Shown in pieces: positions 2,827 to 26,954 of a stretch of DNA of 64,000 nt. Within the stretch, counting starts at the first letter, position 1, and each line of letters opens with the position of its first letter. This DNA is from an uncultured delta proteobacterium (lineage in GTDB: Bacteria > Myxococcota > Myxococcia > Myxococcales > Myxococcaceae). The stretch lies in assembly GCA_963771175.1 (NCBI GenBank), contig CAVYSY010000025.1:32001-96000 (forward strand). The letters run 5' to 3'. The translations under genes and the position numbers were made by a program. The notes beneath the pieces are model-generated. The model was given only the letters and a program-made list of their open reading frames with translations, was not told the DNA's origin and made no database searches.

Positions 2827-3201
2827 TCAGCGGAGGATGTAGAGCACCAGCACCGTCGCAATCAGAATCTGCAGGATCACCGTCCAGACCGTGACCTCTC
2901 GGAGCGGGAAGAGAAACGCCTCTCCGACCTGCTCGCGATCGAGCCGCACGCGCAGCTTCCGGCCCGTCTTCAATGCCGACCACATCAGCGCGTAACCCAG
3001 GATGACGAAGGCGGAGGAGAGCATGACCACCACCCAGCGTGGCCACCCCTTGACGAGCAGCTCGGTGACGAGCGCGCCACCGCCCGAAATTGCCGCTCCT
3101 GTCCGCAACAGCGCGAGCAGGGTCCGCGTCGCCGCCATGTGGGTGTTGTCGAGCGTGAATTGGGACGCATTGCCGGTCGAAAGCTGAGAGGAGTTGTTCA
3201 T
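2827..3201 (-). CDS. YidH/DUF202-like small membrane protein
   Basis: T(H)MAATRTLLALLRTGAAI motif and three hydrophobic helices. Confidence 0.7.
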   Translation of the reverse strand: MNNSSQLSTGNASQFTLDNTHMAATRTLLALLRTGAAISGGGALVTELLVKGWPRWVVVMLSSAFVILGYALMWSALKTGRKLRVRLDREQVGEAFLFPLREVTVWTVILQILIATVLVLYILR

Positions 3202-17138: not shown

Positions 17139-18026
17139 ATGATTCATGGCATCAACGAGGGTGTGACACCGCCCGAACGACAGGCGACGATGCGGCTGCG
17201 TGATGGTCGCGCGCTCTCCTGGTCCGAGTGGGGCTCCGTCGAGGGCCTCCCCGTCTTGTTCTGCACCGGAGCCGCGATGAGCGGGTGGCTTGGCTTTGGC
17301 GCGAACGACCTCCCGAGCCTCGGCTTGAAGCTCATCGCCATCGACCGGCCCGGCCTGGGCTCGAGCGACGCGCACCCGGACAAGACCCTGTCCTCCTGGG
17401 TGGAAGACACGCGGGAGCTCATCGCGGCGAATGACTTGCAGGACGTGACCGCCGTTGGCTTCTCGCAGGGAGCACCCTTCGCGCTGGCGCTCGCGGGGCA
17501 TGGCCTCGTGAAGGCCGTGGCGCTCGTGTCCGGGCAGGACGAGCTCGCTCACCCGCGCATGTTGCCGCTCCTCCATCCGGATGTGGCGGGGATGGTCCGT
17601 GCTGTTCAGCACGATGCCACGGGGTTCGAGCAGGCCTTCGCGCGGATGGCCACGCTGGAGGGATTGTGGCAGCTCATCATCGGCATGAGCGCGGAGCGCG
17701 ACCGCGAGCTGTACCTGAGTGAGCACTTCGGCGAGGCATACCAGCGATCCTTGCGGGAGGGATTCTCGCAAGGCGCGCGGGGGTACGCGCGAGACCTCGT
17801 CAACGCCCTGGGTCCGTGGCCGGTGGCGCCGGAACACATCACCGTTCCGGTGGATCTCTGGTACGGCGGCGCGGACACGAGCACGGTCCACTCCCCCGAT
17901 TTCGGCGCCACCCTCGCCTCACGGCTGCCGAACGCCTCACATACCGTGGATGCCGAGGAGGGCGGGTCGATCCTCTGGACGAGAGCCCGGGATATCCTCG
18001 CGAAACTCAAATCCAGACGTTCCTGA
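17139..18026 (+). CDS. Alpha/beta hydrolase
   Basis: LRDGRALSWSEWG, IDRPGLGSS, GFSQG nucleophile elbow. Confidence 0.9.
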   Translation: MIHGINEGVTPPERQATMRLRDGRALSWSEWGSVEGLPVLFCTGAAMSGWLGFGANDLPSLGLKLIAIDRPGLGSSDAHPDKTLSSWVEDTRELIAANDLQDVTAVGFSQGAPFALALAGHGLVKAVALVSGQDELAHPRMLPLLHPDVAGMVRAVQHDATGFEQAFARMATLEGLWQLIIGMSAERDRELYLSEHFGEAYQRSLREGFSQGARGYARDLVNALGPWPVAPEHITVPVDLWYGGADTSTVHSPDFGATLASRLPNASHTVDAEEGGSILWTRARDILAKLKSRRS

Positions 18027-22841: not shown

Positions 22842-23936
22842 TCACCGCCCGGTGGATGCCTCCCGCTCCTGGTCGAGCAGCCACGAGGCGATGGCCCGCT
22901 CGCACTGCTCGTGGCGGTCGAGGAAGGCGAAGTGCCCGCTGTCGACCTCGACATAGGTGGCGAGGCGACCCGCGCGGCGAGCGACCTCTCGCATCAGGCG
23001 CGCGGGCATCATGGAGTCGTGCTTCCCCTCGACCAGGAGCACGGGGACGCGAGGGAGTGACACCTTCGACGAGGCCCCCGAGAGCAGCACGAGCCCGCGG
23101 AGCTCCAGTCCAGGATGCGCCGCCCGCCCGGCCAGCACGCTCACGCCCACCCCTCCATTGGAGAGGCCCCCGAGGTACACCCGCCGGACTCCGCGCCGCG
23201 CGAGCCATGCGAAGGTGCGCTCCAGCGTCTCCTCGCCGTGCTTCGACCACCAGTCCCCCGAGGGCCCCACCGACGGGCAGACGGTGAGCGCCGAGATGGC
23301 TCGGGCCGCGCGCGACATCTGCCAGCAGTACACGGCGAAGTTGCCGGCATAGCCATGGAGCATCACGACGGCGACCTCGGGCGAGGCCGTGCCCTCGGGA
23401 GGGATGACGACGGCATCGAAGGCCTCGGGCGACTGGAGCCCGAGCCACGTCGCGATGGCGGGCGTGGCCACCGGGCCCTCCGCATCGCGAAGCCGGTCGA
23501 AGGCCCCCTCGAGCGCGGGGATGAACTCGCGCGCATCCGAGCGGGGAATCCGGCCCGAGAACAGGAGGGCATGTGCCGCGAGGAGCGTCCCATCCCGCTC
23601 ATCAACGAGGCGGTTCGTGAGCCTCCTGCCCTCGTCTGGCAGCCGCAGGGTGTGCAGGCCGTTCCCCTCCACGAAGAGGAGCCGCGCACTGGCGACGAGG
23701 AGCAGGAGGCCAAGCCCCACCCGCGTCAGGCCTCGGCGCCTCCGCCAGCGTTTCGTGAGCAGCCCGGCCGAGGTGATGGCGGCACCCACGGCATACCCCC
23801 ATCCCGACGCCGACGCTCCGATGACGCCTGCCGCCACGACCAGGAAGGCGGCGACGGGGCTGGTGACGAGGCCGAGCCAGAAGGCACGCCACGAGGCCAC
23901 GGACGGAGATGGGTTCCGACCTGTTGCTGAATCCAT
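22842..23936 (-). CDS. Membrane-anchored alpha/beta hydrolase
   Basis: N-terminal TM helices, LHGYAGN, GLSNG, DSM, GHFAF. Confidence 0.8.
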   Translation of the reverse strand: MDSATGRNPSPSVASWRAFWLGLVTSPVAAFLVVAAGVIGASASGWGYAVGAAITSAGLLTKRWRRRRGLTRVGLGLLLLVASARLLFVEGNGLHTLRLPDEGRRLTNRLVDERDGTLLAAHALLFSGRIPRSDAREFIPALEGAFDRLRDAEGPVATPAIATWLGLQSPEAFDAVVIPPEGTASPEVAVVMLHGYAGNFAVYCWQMSRAARAISALTVCPSVGPSGDWWSKHGEETLERTFAWLARRGVRRVYLGGLSNGGVGVSVLAGRAAHPGLELRGLVLLSGASSKVSLPRVPVLLVEGKHDSMMPARLMREVARRAGRLATYVEVDSGHFAFLDRHEQCERAIASWLLDQEREASTGR

Positions 23937-24114
23937 GCACCCAGTGTGGAGCGCCCCAGGAGGCAAGAGCTCCCCAGCCGACCGAGCGGTCTGGAGCAGG
24001 CCCCCGTCGGTCGCACCGCGCCCCTGGATGGCCAGCCCGGTCAGGAAATTCGCGCGTCCCGCGTCAAATACCTCATGAGGACGAGGCGCTCGGTTGCTCC
24101 TCCCTCTGAGATAT

Positions 24115-24185
24115 AGGCCGGTCGTTCAGTGGAAGGACCGCGGTCTCCAAAACCGCTGACGGGGGTTCGATTCCCTCTCGGCCTG
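24115..24185 (+). tRNA. tRNA-Trp(CCA)
   Basis: Cloverleaf: AGGCCGG/TCGGCCT acceptor, GCGGT-CTCCAAA-ACCGC anticodon arm, TTCGATT T-loop, G73; CCA end not encoded. Confidence 0.9.
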
Positions 24186-24190
24186 TTGAC

Positions 24191-24261
24191 AGGGACGTAG
24201 CTCAAAGGAAGAGCACCTGCCTGATAAGCGGGAGACAGCAGTTCGAGTCTGCTCGTCCCTA
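24191..24261 (+). tRNA. tRNA-Ile(GAT)
   Basis: AGGGACG/CGTCCCT acceptor, CCTGC-CTGATAA-GCGGG anticodon arm, TTCGAGT T-loop. Confidence 0.9.
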
Positions 24262-24270
24262 TTCACAGAC

Positions 24271-24341
24271 ACGCGAGTCGCTCAACAGCAGAGCACCGGT
24301 TTGACATACCGGAGATCAGGGTGCGACTCCCTGCTCGCGTA
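24271..24341 (+). tRNA. tRNA-Val(GAC), non-canonical
   Basis: ACGCGAG/CTCGCGT acceptor, CCGGT-TTGACAT-ACCGG anticodon arm; T-loop TGCGACT; D-loop AACAGCA lacks GG. Confidence 0.85.
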
Positions 24342-24345
24342 ATTC

Positions 24346-24416
24346 GGGGTCATCGTCCAACAGGAAGATGCCGCCATCGCAAGGCGGAGATCCGGGTGCG
24401 ACTCCCGGTGACTCCA
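24346..24416 (+). tRNA. tRNA-Ala(CGC), non-canonical
   Basis: GGGGTCA/TGACTCC acceptor with G3:U70, CCGCC-ATCGCAA-GGCGG (A32); T-loop TGCGACT. Confidence 0.85.
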
Positions 24417-24427
24417 CTCTTCATCTC

Positions 24428-24496
24428 GGGCTGACCGCTGGGGCGGAGCCGGACCTTGCACGTCTGGCCTGTCGGGTTCGATTCCCGGTCGGTCCA
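24428..24496 (+). tRNA. Atypical short tRNA-Ala(TGC)-like RNA
   Basis: GGGCTGA/TCGGTCC acceptor with G3:U70, anticodon loop CTTGCAC, canonical TTCGATT T-arm, reduced D-arm; 69 nt. Confidence 0.7.
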
Positions 24497-24505
24497 CTCC
24501 CTCCC

Positions 24506-25945
24506 TCACCAGGCCCAGAAGGCCAGCAGGGCTCCCGCGACGGTGGCCACCACGTTGACGGTGTCGTTGCCCAACCAGGAGAAGCCTCGGTGCGACCGGG
24601 TAGGCCGGCCACAGCGGTGAATTCTGCGCTCGGTCTCCCGGCCGCAGGTGTCGCACCACCGCACGTCCTGCACCGTGGCGCCCAGGAGGCTGTCGATCAG
24701 CGAGCCCACCACTCCGGCCAGGATGAGCCAGGGCACGAGCGACCACCGGGCCCCCGCGAGCGCGGCCGCCAGTCCCACGAAGGTGGCGCCCGCGGTGGCC
24801 GCCAGCAGCCCCACTCCAGAGACAGCCCCGGACGTGCCCGGCGCCACCGGTCGCAGCGTGGTGAGCAGCCTCGGGGGCGAGCGGGAGAGAACGCCCAACT
24901 CCGTGGCCCACGTGTCCGCGTTGGCGGCGACCAGGGCGCCCAGCATGGCCAGGGCGTAGCGCTCGTCTCCGGTGACGCCCAGCAGCACCGCCGCCAGCCC
25001 CGCCACGCCCCCATTCGCCAGTGCCTGCCCCAGGTCGCGCGTCCCCGTCTTGGCGTACTCCTCCTCCACGCCGGCCTTCCGGGCGCGGAAGGACTTGGAG
25101 AGCACGCTGGAGGAGATGAAGAAACCGAGCAGTGCCGCGGCCCCCACCGCACCCGCCAGCCCGAAGACGGGCGTGCCGATGAGGATGGCGCCCAGCACAC
25201 CGCTCGGGGTGAGTGAGCCCCGGGCCCAGGACGCCACGCCGATGAGGAGGGCCACTCCCGCGCCCACGCCCAGGCCCGCGGCGTGCGCGGGCGGGACGAG
25301 GAAGAGGACGGCCCCGGCGGCCAGCGGCACCCAGAGGTTGTCCCGGCCCCGGGTGCCGAGTGCCTCGGCGCAGGTGGCCACCACGGCGCACAGCAGGGCC
25401 AGTGGCACCTTCGGCATGTCCGGGGCGAGGCCCGGCATCCACGTCAGCGTGGCCAGCACGGCCACGAAGGTGCCCGCCAACATGGCCAGCGAGCCCTCCA
25501 GGCTCTTGCGCTCGCCGCCGAGCGTCTCGTACGGGTGGCGCCCGAAGCGCCGGCCCACCAGCGAGGCCAGGGCATCCCCCACCGCCATGGCCATGACACC
25601 GCCCGCCGCGGCCGCGGGCTTGTCCCACGCAAGCCACACCAGCAACGAGAAGGACACCGGGAACCAGACCGTGCCCAGGTTGTCGGGCTCGGCCTCCACG
25701 GACTTCAACAGGCGCTTGCGGTGGATGAGCCAGTTGCCCGCCACCGCCGTCACCGACGGCACCACGGCCAGCGCAGGGTTCCGGAAGAGCAGCAGCGTGC
25801 CGAAGATCCAGAAGCCCACGCTCACGTGGACGAGCTTGCGTGCGAGCTCTCGCGACAGGCCCGCGCGCAGGGCCAGCTCACCCGCGACCACGCAGACCCC
25901 GATATACCCATAGGACCAGAGGAGTGCCTGAACGTCCTGACTCAT
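24506..25945 (-). CDS. Phytol/dolichol-kinase-like domain fused to a DUF92 membrane domain
   Basis: RKLVHV, GDALASLVGRRFG..KSLEGS, DNLWVP; then QALANGG, ANADTWATELG, GTSGAVS, DSLLGATVQ, NDTVN. Confidence 0.9.
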   Translation of the reverse strand: MSQDVQALLWSYGYIGVCVVAGELALRAGLSRELARKLVHVSVGFWIFGTLLLFRNPALAVVPSVTAVAGNWLIHRKRLLKSVEAEPDNLGTVWFPVSFSLLVWLAWDKPAAAAGGVMAMAVGDALASLVGRRFGRHPYETLGGERKSLEGSLAMLAGTFVAVLATLTWMPGLAPDMPKVPLALLCAVVATCAEALGTRGRDNLWVPLAAGAVLFLVPPAHAAGLGVGAGVALLIGVASWARGSLTPSGVLGAILIGTPVFGLAGAVGAAALLGFFISSSVLSKSFRARKAGVEEEYAKTGTRDLGQALANGGVAGLAAVLLGVTGDERYALAMLGALVAANADTWATELGVLSRSPPRLLTTLRPVAPGTSGAVSGVGLLAATAGATFVGLAAALAGARWSLVPWLILAGVVGSLIDSLLGATVQDVRWCDTCGRETERRIHRCGRPTRSHRGFSWLGNDTVNVVATVAGALLAFWAW

Positions 25946-25964
25946 GGACCCGAGTGTACCCTGC

Positions 25965-26954
25965 CTATTTCGAGGTCTCCGGGTAACAGCCCGCCAGCCG
26001 GGCTCGCTCGCGCACCAGCACCAGCACCAGCTCGCAGGTCGGCATCGGCTTCCCGACGAGGTGGCCGAGCTCCACCACCGCACCCAGCAGCGCGTCGATC
26101 TCCATCGGCCGGCCGCGCTCGAGGTCCTGCAGCATCGAGGTCTTGTGCGCGCCGACCTCCGCCGCCCCTTGGATGCGCTTGTCGACGTCGATCGGGAAGC
26201 GCACGCCGAGCGCCTCGGCGACGACCTGGGCCTCCACCATCATCGCGCGCGCAACCGCCCGCAGGTCGTCCCTCCCCGCGAGCCGCTCGAGCGTCGCGCC
26301 CGTCAGCGCCGAGAGCGGATTGAAGGCGAGGTTGCCCCAGAGCTTGACCCAGATCTCGTCGCGGATGCGCGCCCGGACCGGCGCCTTGAAGCCCGCCGGA
26401 TCACAGGCGCGACAGGGCCTCGATGCGCGGCGCTCTTGCTGCCGTCGGCTCGCCCAGGGAGAAGCGATCGCCATAGGTGTGCTCGATCACGCCGGGCTCG
26501 ACCACCTCGGCCGCCGGATAGACGCACGCGCCGATGACGCGCGATGGCTCCAGGGTCCGGCAGAGCTCGCCGCCCGGATCGACGCTCTCGCACCGGCCGG
26601 TCACGGTAGGGCCCTTCGAGCCCGTGGAAGTACCACCAGGGCACGCCGTTGATGCCGGTGACGAGCGCGGTGTCGGGGCCCAGCAGCGGCGCGATCTGCG
26701 GCGCGGCCGCCGGCAGGGAGTGCGCCTTCAGCGTGACGACGACGTAGTCCTGCGGCCCCGCCTCGGCCGGGTCGTCGGTGCAGCGCGGCCGGACGGTGAC
26801 GCTCTCGCCCCCGCTCCGGAGCGTGAGGCCCCGCTCGCGCATCGCCGCGAGATGCGCCCCGCGCGCGATGAGGGTGACCTCGGCGCCGGCCTGGAGCAGC
26901 CGGACACCGATGAAGCCGCCGATCGCGCCGGCGCCGAAGATGGCCGATCCTCAT
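25965..26954 (-). CDS. 2-dehydropantoate 2-reductase family protein (PanE2/oxalyl-CoA reductase-like), frameshifted
   Basis: GAGAIGG Rossmann motif, [36 protein letters not shown]; pieces lie in several frames. Confidence 0.8.

Follow-up and report, generated by a model that had tools for sequence, protein, structure and literature searches.

A five-gene tRNA cassette in a myxobacterial genome is probably a satellite of a split, stress-inducible second tRNA set

The five closely packed tRNA genes analyzed here, from the genome of an uncultured delta proteobacterium (G000), probably belong, as a satellite, to a backup tRNA set that is split over several loci, stress-inducible, and controlled by an ECF sigma factor. 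By analogy with Anabaena, the cassette most likely works like the trn operon of that cyanobacterium but with a different regulator. The five genes are real and supernumerary and, as judged by comparison with relatives, under selection. Since a promoter-like signal is common to the tRNA set and to RNA-repair genes, the set is probably a stress-switched spare kit for translation. The cassette lies in a stretch of 64,000 nucleotides (the window) on contig C25 of G000, a 9.8-Mb assembly that is 82% complete and whose proteins have their named relatives in Archangium (Table 1).

Table 1. The cassette, its surroundings, and the other divergent tRNA loci of the source genome (numbers are window positions; tRNA coordinates are gene bodies up to base 73)
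Feature	Location	Strand	Remarks
ECF-type promoter-like motif	24039..24065	+	-35 GGTCAGGAA (24039-24047), 14 nt, -10 CGTC (24062-24065)
tRNA-Trp(CCA)	24115..24185	+	ordinary cloverleaf; ARAGORN and Rfam RF00005
tRNA-Ile(GAU)	24191..24261	+	divergent, canonical fold; ARAGORN and Rfam RF00005
tRNA-Val(GAC)	24271..24341	+	A18 (24287) and G55 (24323) replace G18 and U55
tRNA-Ala(CGC)	24346..24416	+	A18 (24362), G55 (24398), A32, G3:U70
tRNA-Ala(UGC)	24428..24496	+	69 nt, compact fold; ARAGORN only
DUF92 membrane protein gene	24506..26083	-	convergent; Pfam DUF92, E 2e-63
alpha/beta-hydrolase-like gene	22842..23966	-	divergent from cassette; ORF list and Pfam
divergent tRNA locus	contig C26		main locus; 16 genes, HNH gene inside
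divergent tRNA locus	contig C3		Gly, Leu, Leu
divergent tRNA locus	contig C54		Glu, Asp
divergent tRNA locus	contig C47		Cys

All five genes were called by ARAGORN, a check for which an earlier note on this DNA had asked, and four of the five matched Rfam RF00005, Ala(UGC) being missed at E ≤ 1. The tight packing described in that note was borne out, with spacers of 5, 9, 4, and 11 nt. CCA is, as claimed, not encoded in any of the five; because it is also absent from 43 of the 63 other tRNA calls of the genome (22 of 24 in the extra set described below), and this is thus the majority state, its absence is no sign of cryptic genes. Reading the sequence directly, we recovered the other peculiarities that had been listed, namely, the T-loop TGCGACT in Val and Ala(CGC), C9 in these two and in Trp, a Val D-loop without GG, and A32 in Ala(CGC), together with the preserved identity elements (G3:U70 in both Ala, G73 in Trp). 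The housekeeping Glu and Gln genes of this genome likewise have C9. Three features had escaped the earlier note: the A18 of Ala(CGC), the divergent architecture of Ala(UGC), and the promoter-like motif listed in Table 1. In all five tRNAs, the anticodon agrees with the acceptor identity, and acceptor and T stems of 7 and 5 bp are combined with short variable regions. Minimum-energy folding gave cloverleaves for Ile and Val, the z-scores of the five ranging from -2.0 to -3.2. Neither an integrase nor an RNA-repair gene adjoins the cassette (ORF lists, with Pfam on the two neighbors), as had been noted, and its end lies 9 nt from the stop codon of the DUF92 gene. No sigma-70-like promoter or intrinsic terminator was found at the locus, and no structured 5' leader was supported in the window (z-score, -0.6). 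Elsewhere in the window, an ARAGORN tRNA-Thr call (17189-17279) inside a protein-coding ORF and without a T-loop motif is very likely false. Between 26000 and 32500, acyl-CoA synthetase-like, proC-like, and other ordinary genes look split across frames, which suggests assembly indel errors.

That the cassette holds the sole housekeeping copies of its isoacceptors, the possibility against which the earlier note had warned, is ruled out by canonical genes for all five anticodons elsewhere in the genome. Identity to these counterparts is 77% for Trp, 64% for Ile, 58% for Val, 64% for Ala(CGC), and 66% for Ala(UGC). The cassette was found in 11 of the 17 other genomes of the genus and a lone Ala(CGC) in 2, both with a variant of the motif of Table 1; the cassette query had no match in 4 of the 17, one of which (G008) has other motif-led arrays. 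Synteny with the DUF92 gene, also proposed for checking, holds: the cassette ends at the 3' end of this gene in 10 of 12 aligned loci. Its upstream neighbor varies, and the alpha/beta-hydrolase-like gene is not kept beside the array in relatives.

Across 10 relatives (without G011, and excluding rows in which <60% of a gene was covered), identity to G000 was 0.95 for Ile, 0.93 for Val, 0.95 for Ala(CGC), and 0.84 for Ala(UGC), versus only 0.57 to 0.76 for the spacers and 0.38 for the downstream DNA. For Ile, 9 distinct sequences gave two-sided changes at 5 pairs, and 98% of cells were paired. Val had zero two-sided changes within the genus and is hence uninformative for covariation; its A18 and G55 are invariant in 10 of 10 homologues. 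With genes that outconserve their spacers (84 to 95% versus 57 to 76%) and stems that covary, the claim of selection rather than decay is upheld. The membership of the cassette is less constant. Its first slot is occupied by Trp in G000 and G011 and by Glu(UUC) in 4 relatives and is empty in 6, and members are lost or broken in 3 of the 11 relatives: G006 has no Val, G016 keeps half of Ala(CGC), and G009 carries a Val/Ala chimera with Ala(UGC) deleted.

In Val and also in Ala(CGC), A18 accompanies G55, and these are the only two with this pair among the 14 G000 tRNAs of that geometry. When viral contigs were scanned with position 18 left free, A18 was found in 80 of 82 distinct G55 cores and G18 in 124 of 125 U55 cores among the matches listed, which are not independent sequences. 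Because the odd bases covary, they are structure and decay is ruled out as their origin; to judge by the same covariation, an A18-G55 contact has replaced the G18-U55 elbow contact. It would represent a natural second solution to the tRNA elbow. A CAU anticodon was seen in 28 of the 80 viral A18:G55 cores, again among the matches listed. No description of an A18/G55 elbow was found in a literature search that was thin on subscription journals; older tRNA-elbow library studies from the Steinberg laboratory may include it. G55 is also part of the consensus T-loop (GUGCAAC) of the tymovirus tRNA-like 3' element (RF00233), which the window's Val region matches at an E value of 0.027, with a score of 25.6 that lies below the gathering score of 40. 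Unlike the cassette Val, RF00233 is a viral UTR element with a pseudoknotted acceptor.

Ala(UGC) has a 7-bp acceptor stem, no 8-9 linker, a 4-bp D-stem with a 4-nt GG tetraloop followed by 1 nt, a 7-bp anticodon stem, a 3-nt variable region, a 5-bp T-stem, and a UUCGA T-loop. Minimum-energy folding of the window's copy alone prefers a different arrangement of the D and T arms, and the compact fold therefore rests on covariation. A search pattern that fixed only the ends, the anticodon, and the T-loop gave at least 177 distinct sequences (at least 112 genomic and 65 viral); 90 were kept on acceptor and T-stem pairing alone, and 87 out-of-register ones were dropped. In these 90 bacterial and viral sequences, 93% of cells were paired, versus 40 to 48% in slid controls, and two-sided changes numbered 611 versus 194 after shuffling, with 0 of 500 shuffles reaching 611. 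Covariation extends to every one of the four D pairs and of the seven anticodon-stem pairs; in the anticodon stem, the two extra pairs are intact in 81 and 82 of the 90 sequences, and the two after them hold least often (67 and 60 of 90). Going by these alignments, the lost 8-9 linker is compensated for by the two extra anticodon-stem pairs.

Copies with a perfect D-stem lie mostly in tRNA clusters (61 of 74 in loci with at least 4 tRNA calls), and ARAGORN missed the compact gene in 15 of the 74 loci. The record titles of compact-fold copies include Micromonospora, Xanthobacteraceae, Polyangia, and Limnocylindrales, and three array Trp genes and one viral Val follow the plan with a D-loop of 3 nt. 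Myxococcus phage Mx1 (OR576727.2) carries, at 2994-3063, an unannotated compact tRNA-Ala(UGC) with the tetraloop, in a tRNA cluster after a gene annotated as RNA ligase A; ARAGORN finds 11 tRNAs in this phage, and the record lists 7. BLAST gave no match of the window's Ala(UGC) to phages and none of a relative's sequence to plasmids. As compact tRNAs are missed by Rfam, by ARAGORN, and by the Mx1 annotation, current counts of tRNA genes in phages and soil bacteria are too low.

The compact plan recalls tRNA-Pyl and mammalian mt-tRNA-Ser(UCN), in which a longer anticodon stem makes up for a shorter acceptor-D linker and which share its short D-loop and 3-nt variable region; in some delta-N tRNA-Pyl, the linker is missing and the D-loop measures 3 to 4 nt (available parts of PMC11764691, PMC6414753, and PMC4394434). 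Ala(UGC) differs from these tRNAs, as described there, in its 7 (not 6) anticodon-stem pairs, normal T-loop, G3:U70, and sense anticodon and in its place in bacterial and phage arrays. It is not a tRNA-Pyl, given its UGC rather than CUA anticodon, 7-bp rather than 6-bp stem, and UUCGA T-loop; it would extend the mitochondrial/pyrrolysine style of compensation to a sense-codon bacterial tRNA. Allo-tRNAs and 8/4 tRNA-Ser/His are, in the part of PMC5389517 available, likewise non-standard cloverleaves from phage and bacterial clusters that annotators often miss, and some of them also have a D-stem tetraloop. Unlike the cassette tRNAs with their short variable regions, allo-tRNAs have 8/4 or 9/3 stems and mostly long variable arms there; all five cassette tRNAs are 7/5, and we rejected both types for them. 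The compact fold was not found in the searched parts of that paper and its supplement. A literature search, thin on subscription journals, found no description of it.

The genes of the cassette are supernumerary and selected, but the cassette is no stand-alone oddity. It is one of five loci of a split second set, in which 27 extra tRNA genes, each with a different anticodon, cover all 20 amino acids; three of the 16 genes on C26 (His and two Ser) were called only at a lowered ARAGORN threshold. Within the extra set, the cassette supplies Trp, Ile, and both Ala. On 1.34 million codons from 2,527 long ORFs and under simple wobble rules, the set reads 81.5% of codons and, without the cassette, 69.2%; the cassette alone reads 12.3% of codons, including 5.3% that are GCG. 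GCC, CGC, ACC, and UCC cannot be read by the extra set, which is therefore no replacement for the housekeeping set. G or C comes first in 26 of its 27 anticodons, fitting the G/C-ending codons of the host. Either selection or the break-up of a single ancestral array would account for the non-redundancy of the set. As to individual members, two weakly scoring Ser tRNAs after the HNH gene (C26:382013-382200) are possibly of the 8/4 type. The array tRNA-Leu (CAG, GAG, and CAA; C3:19049-19201 and C26:381227-381301) have short variable regions, unlike housekeeping Leu, and the array Cys (C47:21995-22068) and Met (C26:380799-380871) also have shrunken D-loops, though they do not match the strict linker-less descriptor.

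The promoter-like motif of Table 1 is the sole such site in the window, and its presumed function is that of a promoter. Upstream of the arrays, the consensus reads GTCAGG-N15/16-CGTC. It precedes 14 of the 14 homologous arrays examined (a count that excludes the two lone Ala(CGC) loci), though the genes further upstream differ, and the -35 and -10 boxes are kept across arrays while the DNA between them varies. In G000, the motif lies ≤350 nt upstream of 8 of 43 tRNA units, versus 0 to 1 for nine other spacings and 0.04 expected; these 8 are all five divergent loci plus three housekeeping-type units. With a stricter pattern, 228 sites were found in 18 genomes of the genus, versus 26 for the reversed control. 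Raw genome-wide counts in G000 are not enriched (matrix, 47 versus 40 to 69 at other spacings; second count, 15 versus 4 to 12) because chance matches in coding DNA dominate, and the signal emerges only beside tRNAs and against the reversed control. In the scan of relatives, from which two overlapping loci were left out, tRNAs lie behind 7 of 17 sites in G004, 6 of 14 scanned in G116, and 1 of 3 scanned in G170, a genome with 4 motif matches versus 6 for controls. Motif-led arrays occur in three genera, and Myxococcus-like genomes have few sites.

Other G000 genes behind the motif encode the HNH protein of the main array, an ApaH/Pnkp-like phosphoesterase, a TROVE-like protein with ARPP-2, a vWA-like protein, and a small protein with a ThiF enzyme; weaker sites precede tmRNA, AAA_33 with Thg1, and an R2K ATP-grasp gene. 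In relatives, genes for RtcB, SPFH, and an EF-Tu paralogue join this group. The remark of the earlier note that no RNA-repair gene lies next to the cassette holds, but repair-type genes share the motif in trans. Upstream of rtcB in G000, we found no clear motif site and no sigma-54 site. The TROVE-like identity comes from the Atlas alone, a PDB sequence search of that protein giving no match and a single-sequence model being poor (pLDDT 41).

Several further observations were made around these genes. A divergent third EF-Tu (G000 C37:48597-49916) has the motif upstream in G004 and in degenerate form in G000; the G004 orthologue is ~56% identical to the two main copies, and a role as a dedicated carrier for the odd tRNAs is possible. 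At G000 C58:75138-76775, an RbfA-like gene is followed by a frameshifted-looking rtcB. The leader of the operon for the TROVE-like protein and ARPP-2 (G000 C4:15787-15950) contains CTTGACTAGC, which we take to resemble the Ro-binding strand of Y RNAs. Small tRNA-like RNAs with a T-arm and complementary ends also lie behind the motif (G000 C24:286002 and six loci of relatives). By eye these look Y-RNA-like; Rfam gave no match at their places, and we dropped an identification as Y RNAs.

An ECF sigma/zinc anti-sigma pair is likely the regulator of the motif regulon. The gene for the ECF-type sigma (C26:361854-362516, 220 aa) is ~17 kb away from the main array; it is arranged head to head with the phosphoesterase gene and followed by the gene for a 396-aa zinc-finger protein. 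The sigma matches Sigma70_r2 (E 1.7e-7) and reaches 42.0 bits for TIGR02937 (cut-off, 42.9), with no Pfam match in region 4, and its partner scores 20 bits for zf-HC2 (cut-off, 22.2) in an Atlas cluster that is 54% zf-HC2. The sigma was found in 36 of 151 genomes of the order, 34 of them among the 44 of the family, and in five of five chosen genomes, including two other genera whose arrays have the motif. Autoregulation is typical of ECF sigmas. Of 30 orthologous loci, 20 have the motif upstream of the sigma gene, 24 have it on the divergent strand, and 29 have it on at least one of the two. Region 2, a zf-HC2 partner, and an upstream motif, by which we recognize an ECF sigma/zinc anti-sigma pair, are all present. 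A model of the sigma/partner complex scored 0.66 (best control, 0.00), with a contact agreement of at least 75% and a partner pLDDT of at least 71. Among reference pairs, 116 of 157 solved ones and 2 of 215 mismatched ones attained the pass mark; this pass may reflect likeness to solved sigma/zinc anti-sigma complexes. We infer that the candidate sigma reads the GTCAGG-N15/16-CGTC motif. The genus g43 has the sigma and 0 to 1 strict motif sites.

The Myxococcus xanthus orthologue of the sigma is ABF87418.1, and the locus tags may be MXAN_1509/1510. One paper names MXAN_1509 a diadenosine tetraphosphate hydrolase, and no mention of MXAN_1510 was found in the literature. Other ECF candidates are one gene four genes away and a SnoaL-type ECF beside an array in G027. 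A regulator of the ECF56 (SigG-like) group was rejected. In the accessible part of bioRxiv 10.1101/2020.01.30.927608, its promoter is CGATGAGTT-N14-GGTC and the sigma has a SnoaL-like C-terminal extension; here, the motif differs, and the 220-aa candidate has no SnoaL match.

Twelve longer arrays (G000 C26:379731, C3:19589, and C54:50972 and nine loci of relatives) have a strong ribosome-binding site and a leader ORF of 32 to 57 codons between the motif and the first tRNA. The last codons of this ORF are partly complementary to the terminator hairpin that comes next, an attenuator-like arrangement that is absent from the cassette in the window. No ribosome-controlled switch was supported, as equilibrium folding keeps the terminator in 12 of 12 leaders (0.81 to 1.00 without a ribosome).

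Twelve runs on record as RNA contain part of the stretch. We examined four, all as contigs, and in four of four the contigs span at least one cassette spacer, which is expected of a precursor: a perfect contig of 269 nt (24232-24500) comes from X1, one of 184 nt from X2, one of 151 nt from X3, and a 283-nt contig of a relative from X5. The soil RNA libraries with such contigs come from several studies, and in two other RNA runs of the study that gave the best run, the sequence was almost absent. The contigs are a hint of cassette transcription; since X1 covers the DUF92 gene and X3 includes a piece upstream of the predicted start, they could be DNA carry-over.

Like the trn operon of Anabaena PCC 7120 and other L-arrays, the set consists of divergent, supernumerary tRNAs redundant with housekeeping anticodons, and, as in trn, an HNH gene lies inside the main array (PMC8421152, available part). 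According to the part of PMC10272220 available, the Anabaena TrcR regulon comprises the trn array, HNH, rtcB, slipin, and rimK; here, a promoter signal is similarly common to rtcB-, slipin-, and ATP-grasp-type genes. Unlike L-arrays and trn as described in these parts, the set is split over five chromosomal loci, and the cassette has only five genes. Unlike trn, with its repressor-bound repeats, it has ECF-type -35 and -10 boxes and a candidate sigma/anti-sigma pair, and its longer arrays have a leader ORF and a terminator. The five genes of the cassette are too few for an L-array (the main locus has 16). The genes are supernumerary and not tandem duplicates (housekeeping copies exist, at 58 to 77% identity), and HNH/RNA-repair linkage is present, with co-regulation proposed from the shared motif. 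The patchy distribution or horizontal origin of L-arrays may apply as well, the cassette occurring in 11 of 17 genus genomes and its folds also in viruses. "Myxo-" and "Deltaproteobacteria" are absent from the main text of PMC8421152. A literature search that was thin on subscription journals found no description of myxobacterial tRNA arrays or of an ECF-tRNA regulon. The RtcR/sigma-54 RNA-repair regulon has the layout rsr-yrl-rtcBA. In Salmonella and E. coli, this regulon likewise groups RtcB, TROVE/Ro60-like proteins, and Y-RNA-like RNAs (PMC10272220, available part); unlike it, the regulon proposed here includes spare tRNAs and has an ECF sigma as candidate regulator.

In the backup reading that we prefer, the zinc-finger partner would hold the sigma inactive, and damage to tRNA or ribosomes would release it. 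The sigma would then transcribe the cassette as one precursor from about position 24072, and RNase P, 3' trimming, and the CCA-adding enzyme would mature the five tRNAs. These would be charged, with G3:U70, A73, and G73 kept, and the charged spares would top up the damaged tRNA pool while repair enzymes of the same regulon work.

The tRNAs might instead be induced with the regulon and act outside decoding, as decoys for tRNase toxins or as ligands of TROVE or repair proteins, which we consider unlikely. IleRS determinants are C4:G69 and C29:G41, from which the array Ile departs with G4:C69 and U29:G41, and the motif is common to TROVE-like proteins and Y-RNA-like RNAs. The decoy idea was raised for the Anabaena array as well, and irregular tRNAs can be charged but unused, or inactive (available parts of PMC8421152 and of Mukai 2017, PMC5389517). 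Decoding is nevertheless favored by the agreement of anticodon and acceptor identity in five of five tRNAs, by the coverage of 20 amino acids without repeats and with G- or C-initial anticodons, and by Anabaena, where 23 of 26 array tRNAs are charged and those tested are on polysomes (PMC8421152, available part).

Still less probable is a phage-derived tRNA cluster that was broken up and is slowly decaying, its conservation reflecting recent descent and its motif being a leftover. Such an origin would fit the same folds in viral contigs and in Mx1 and the patchy presence and gene-sized deletions in relatives; it fits poorly with genes that outconserve spacers and show compensatory changes within the genus, with boxes kept while the intervening DNA varies, and with the occurrence of motif-led arrays in three genera and of the sigma in 34 of the 44 genomes of the family. 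Least probable of the three is a constitutive supplement for abundant G/C-ending codons (GCG, AUC, GUC) under a housekeeping promoter: the cassette's share of codons, the motif before some housekeeping tRNA units, and the contigs from several soil studies speak for it, against the absence of a sigma-70-like promoter, the grouping of the motif with repair genes and the ECF/anti-sigma pair, and the two nearly empty runs, which are no proof of absence.

To our knowledge, work on stress-inducible spare tRNA sets has been confined to one cyanobacterium. The backup set proposed here would extend it to a second lineage, for which a candidate regulator is named, the promoter and the regulon are predicted, and tests are feasible in M. 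xanthus via ABF87418.1. More tentatively, three further statements may hold jointly. The A18:G55 and the linker-less 7-bp tRNAs may be two unrecognized classes of working elongators common to phages and soil bacteria. U55 and U8 are the bases acted on by TruB and ThiI, and as these are removed in the two classes, such tRNAs may work unmodified and escape tRNA-directed attack. Myxobacteria, for their part, may keep a complete spare set under an ECF/anti-sigma switch that senses RNA damage. Spare sets can be scattered as small cassettes, which surveys of arrays would take for ordinary clusters.
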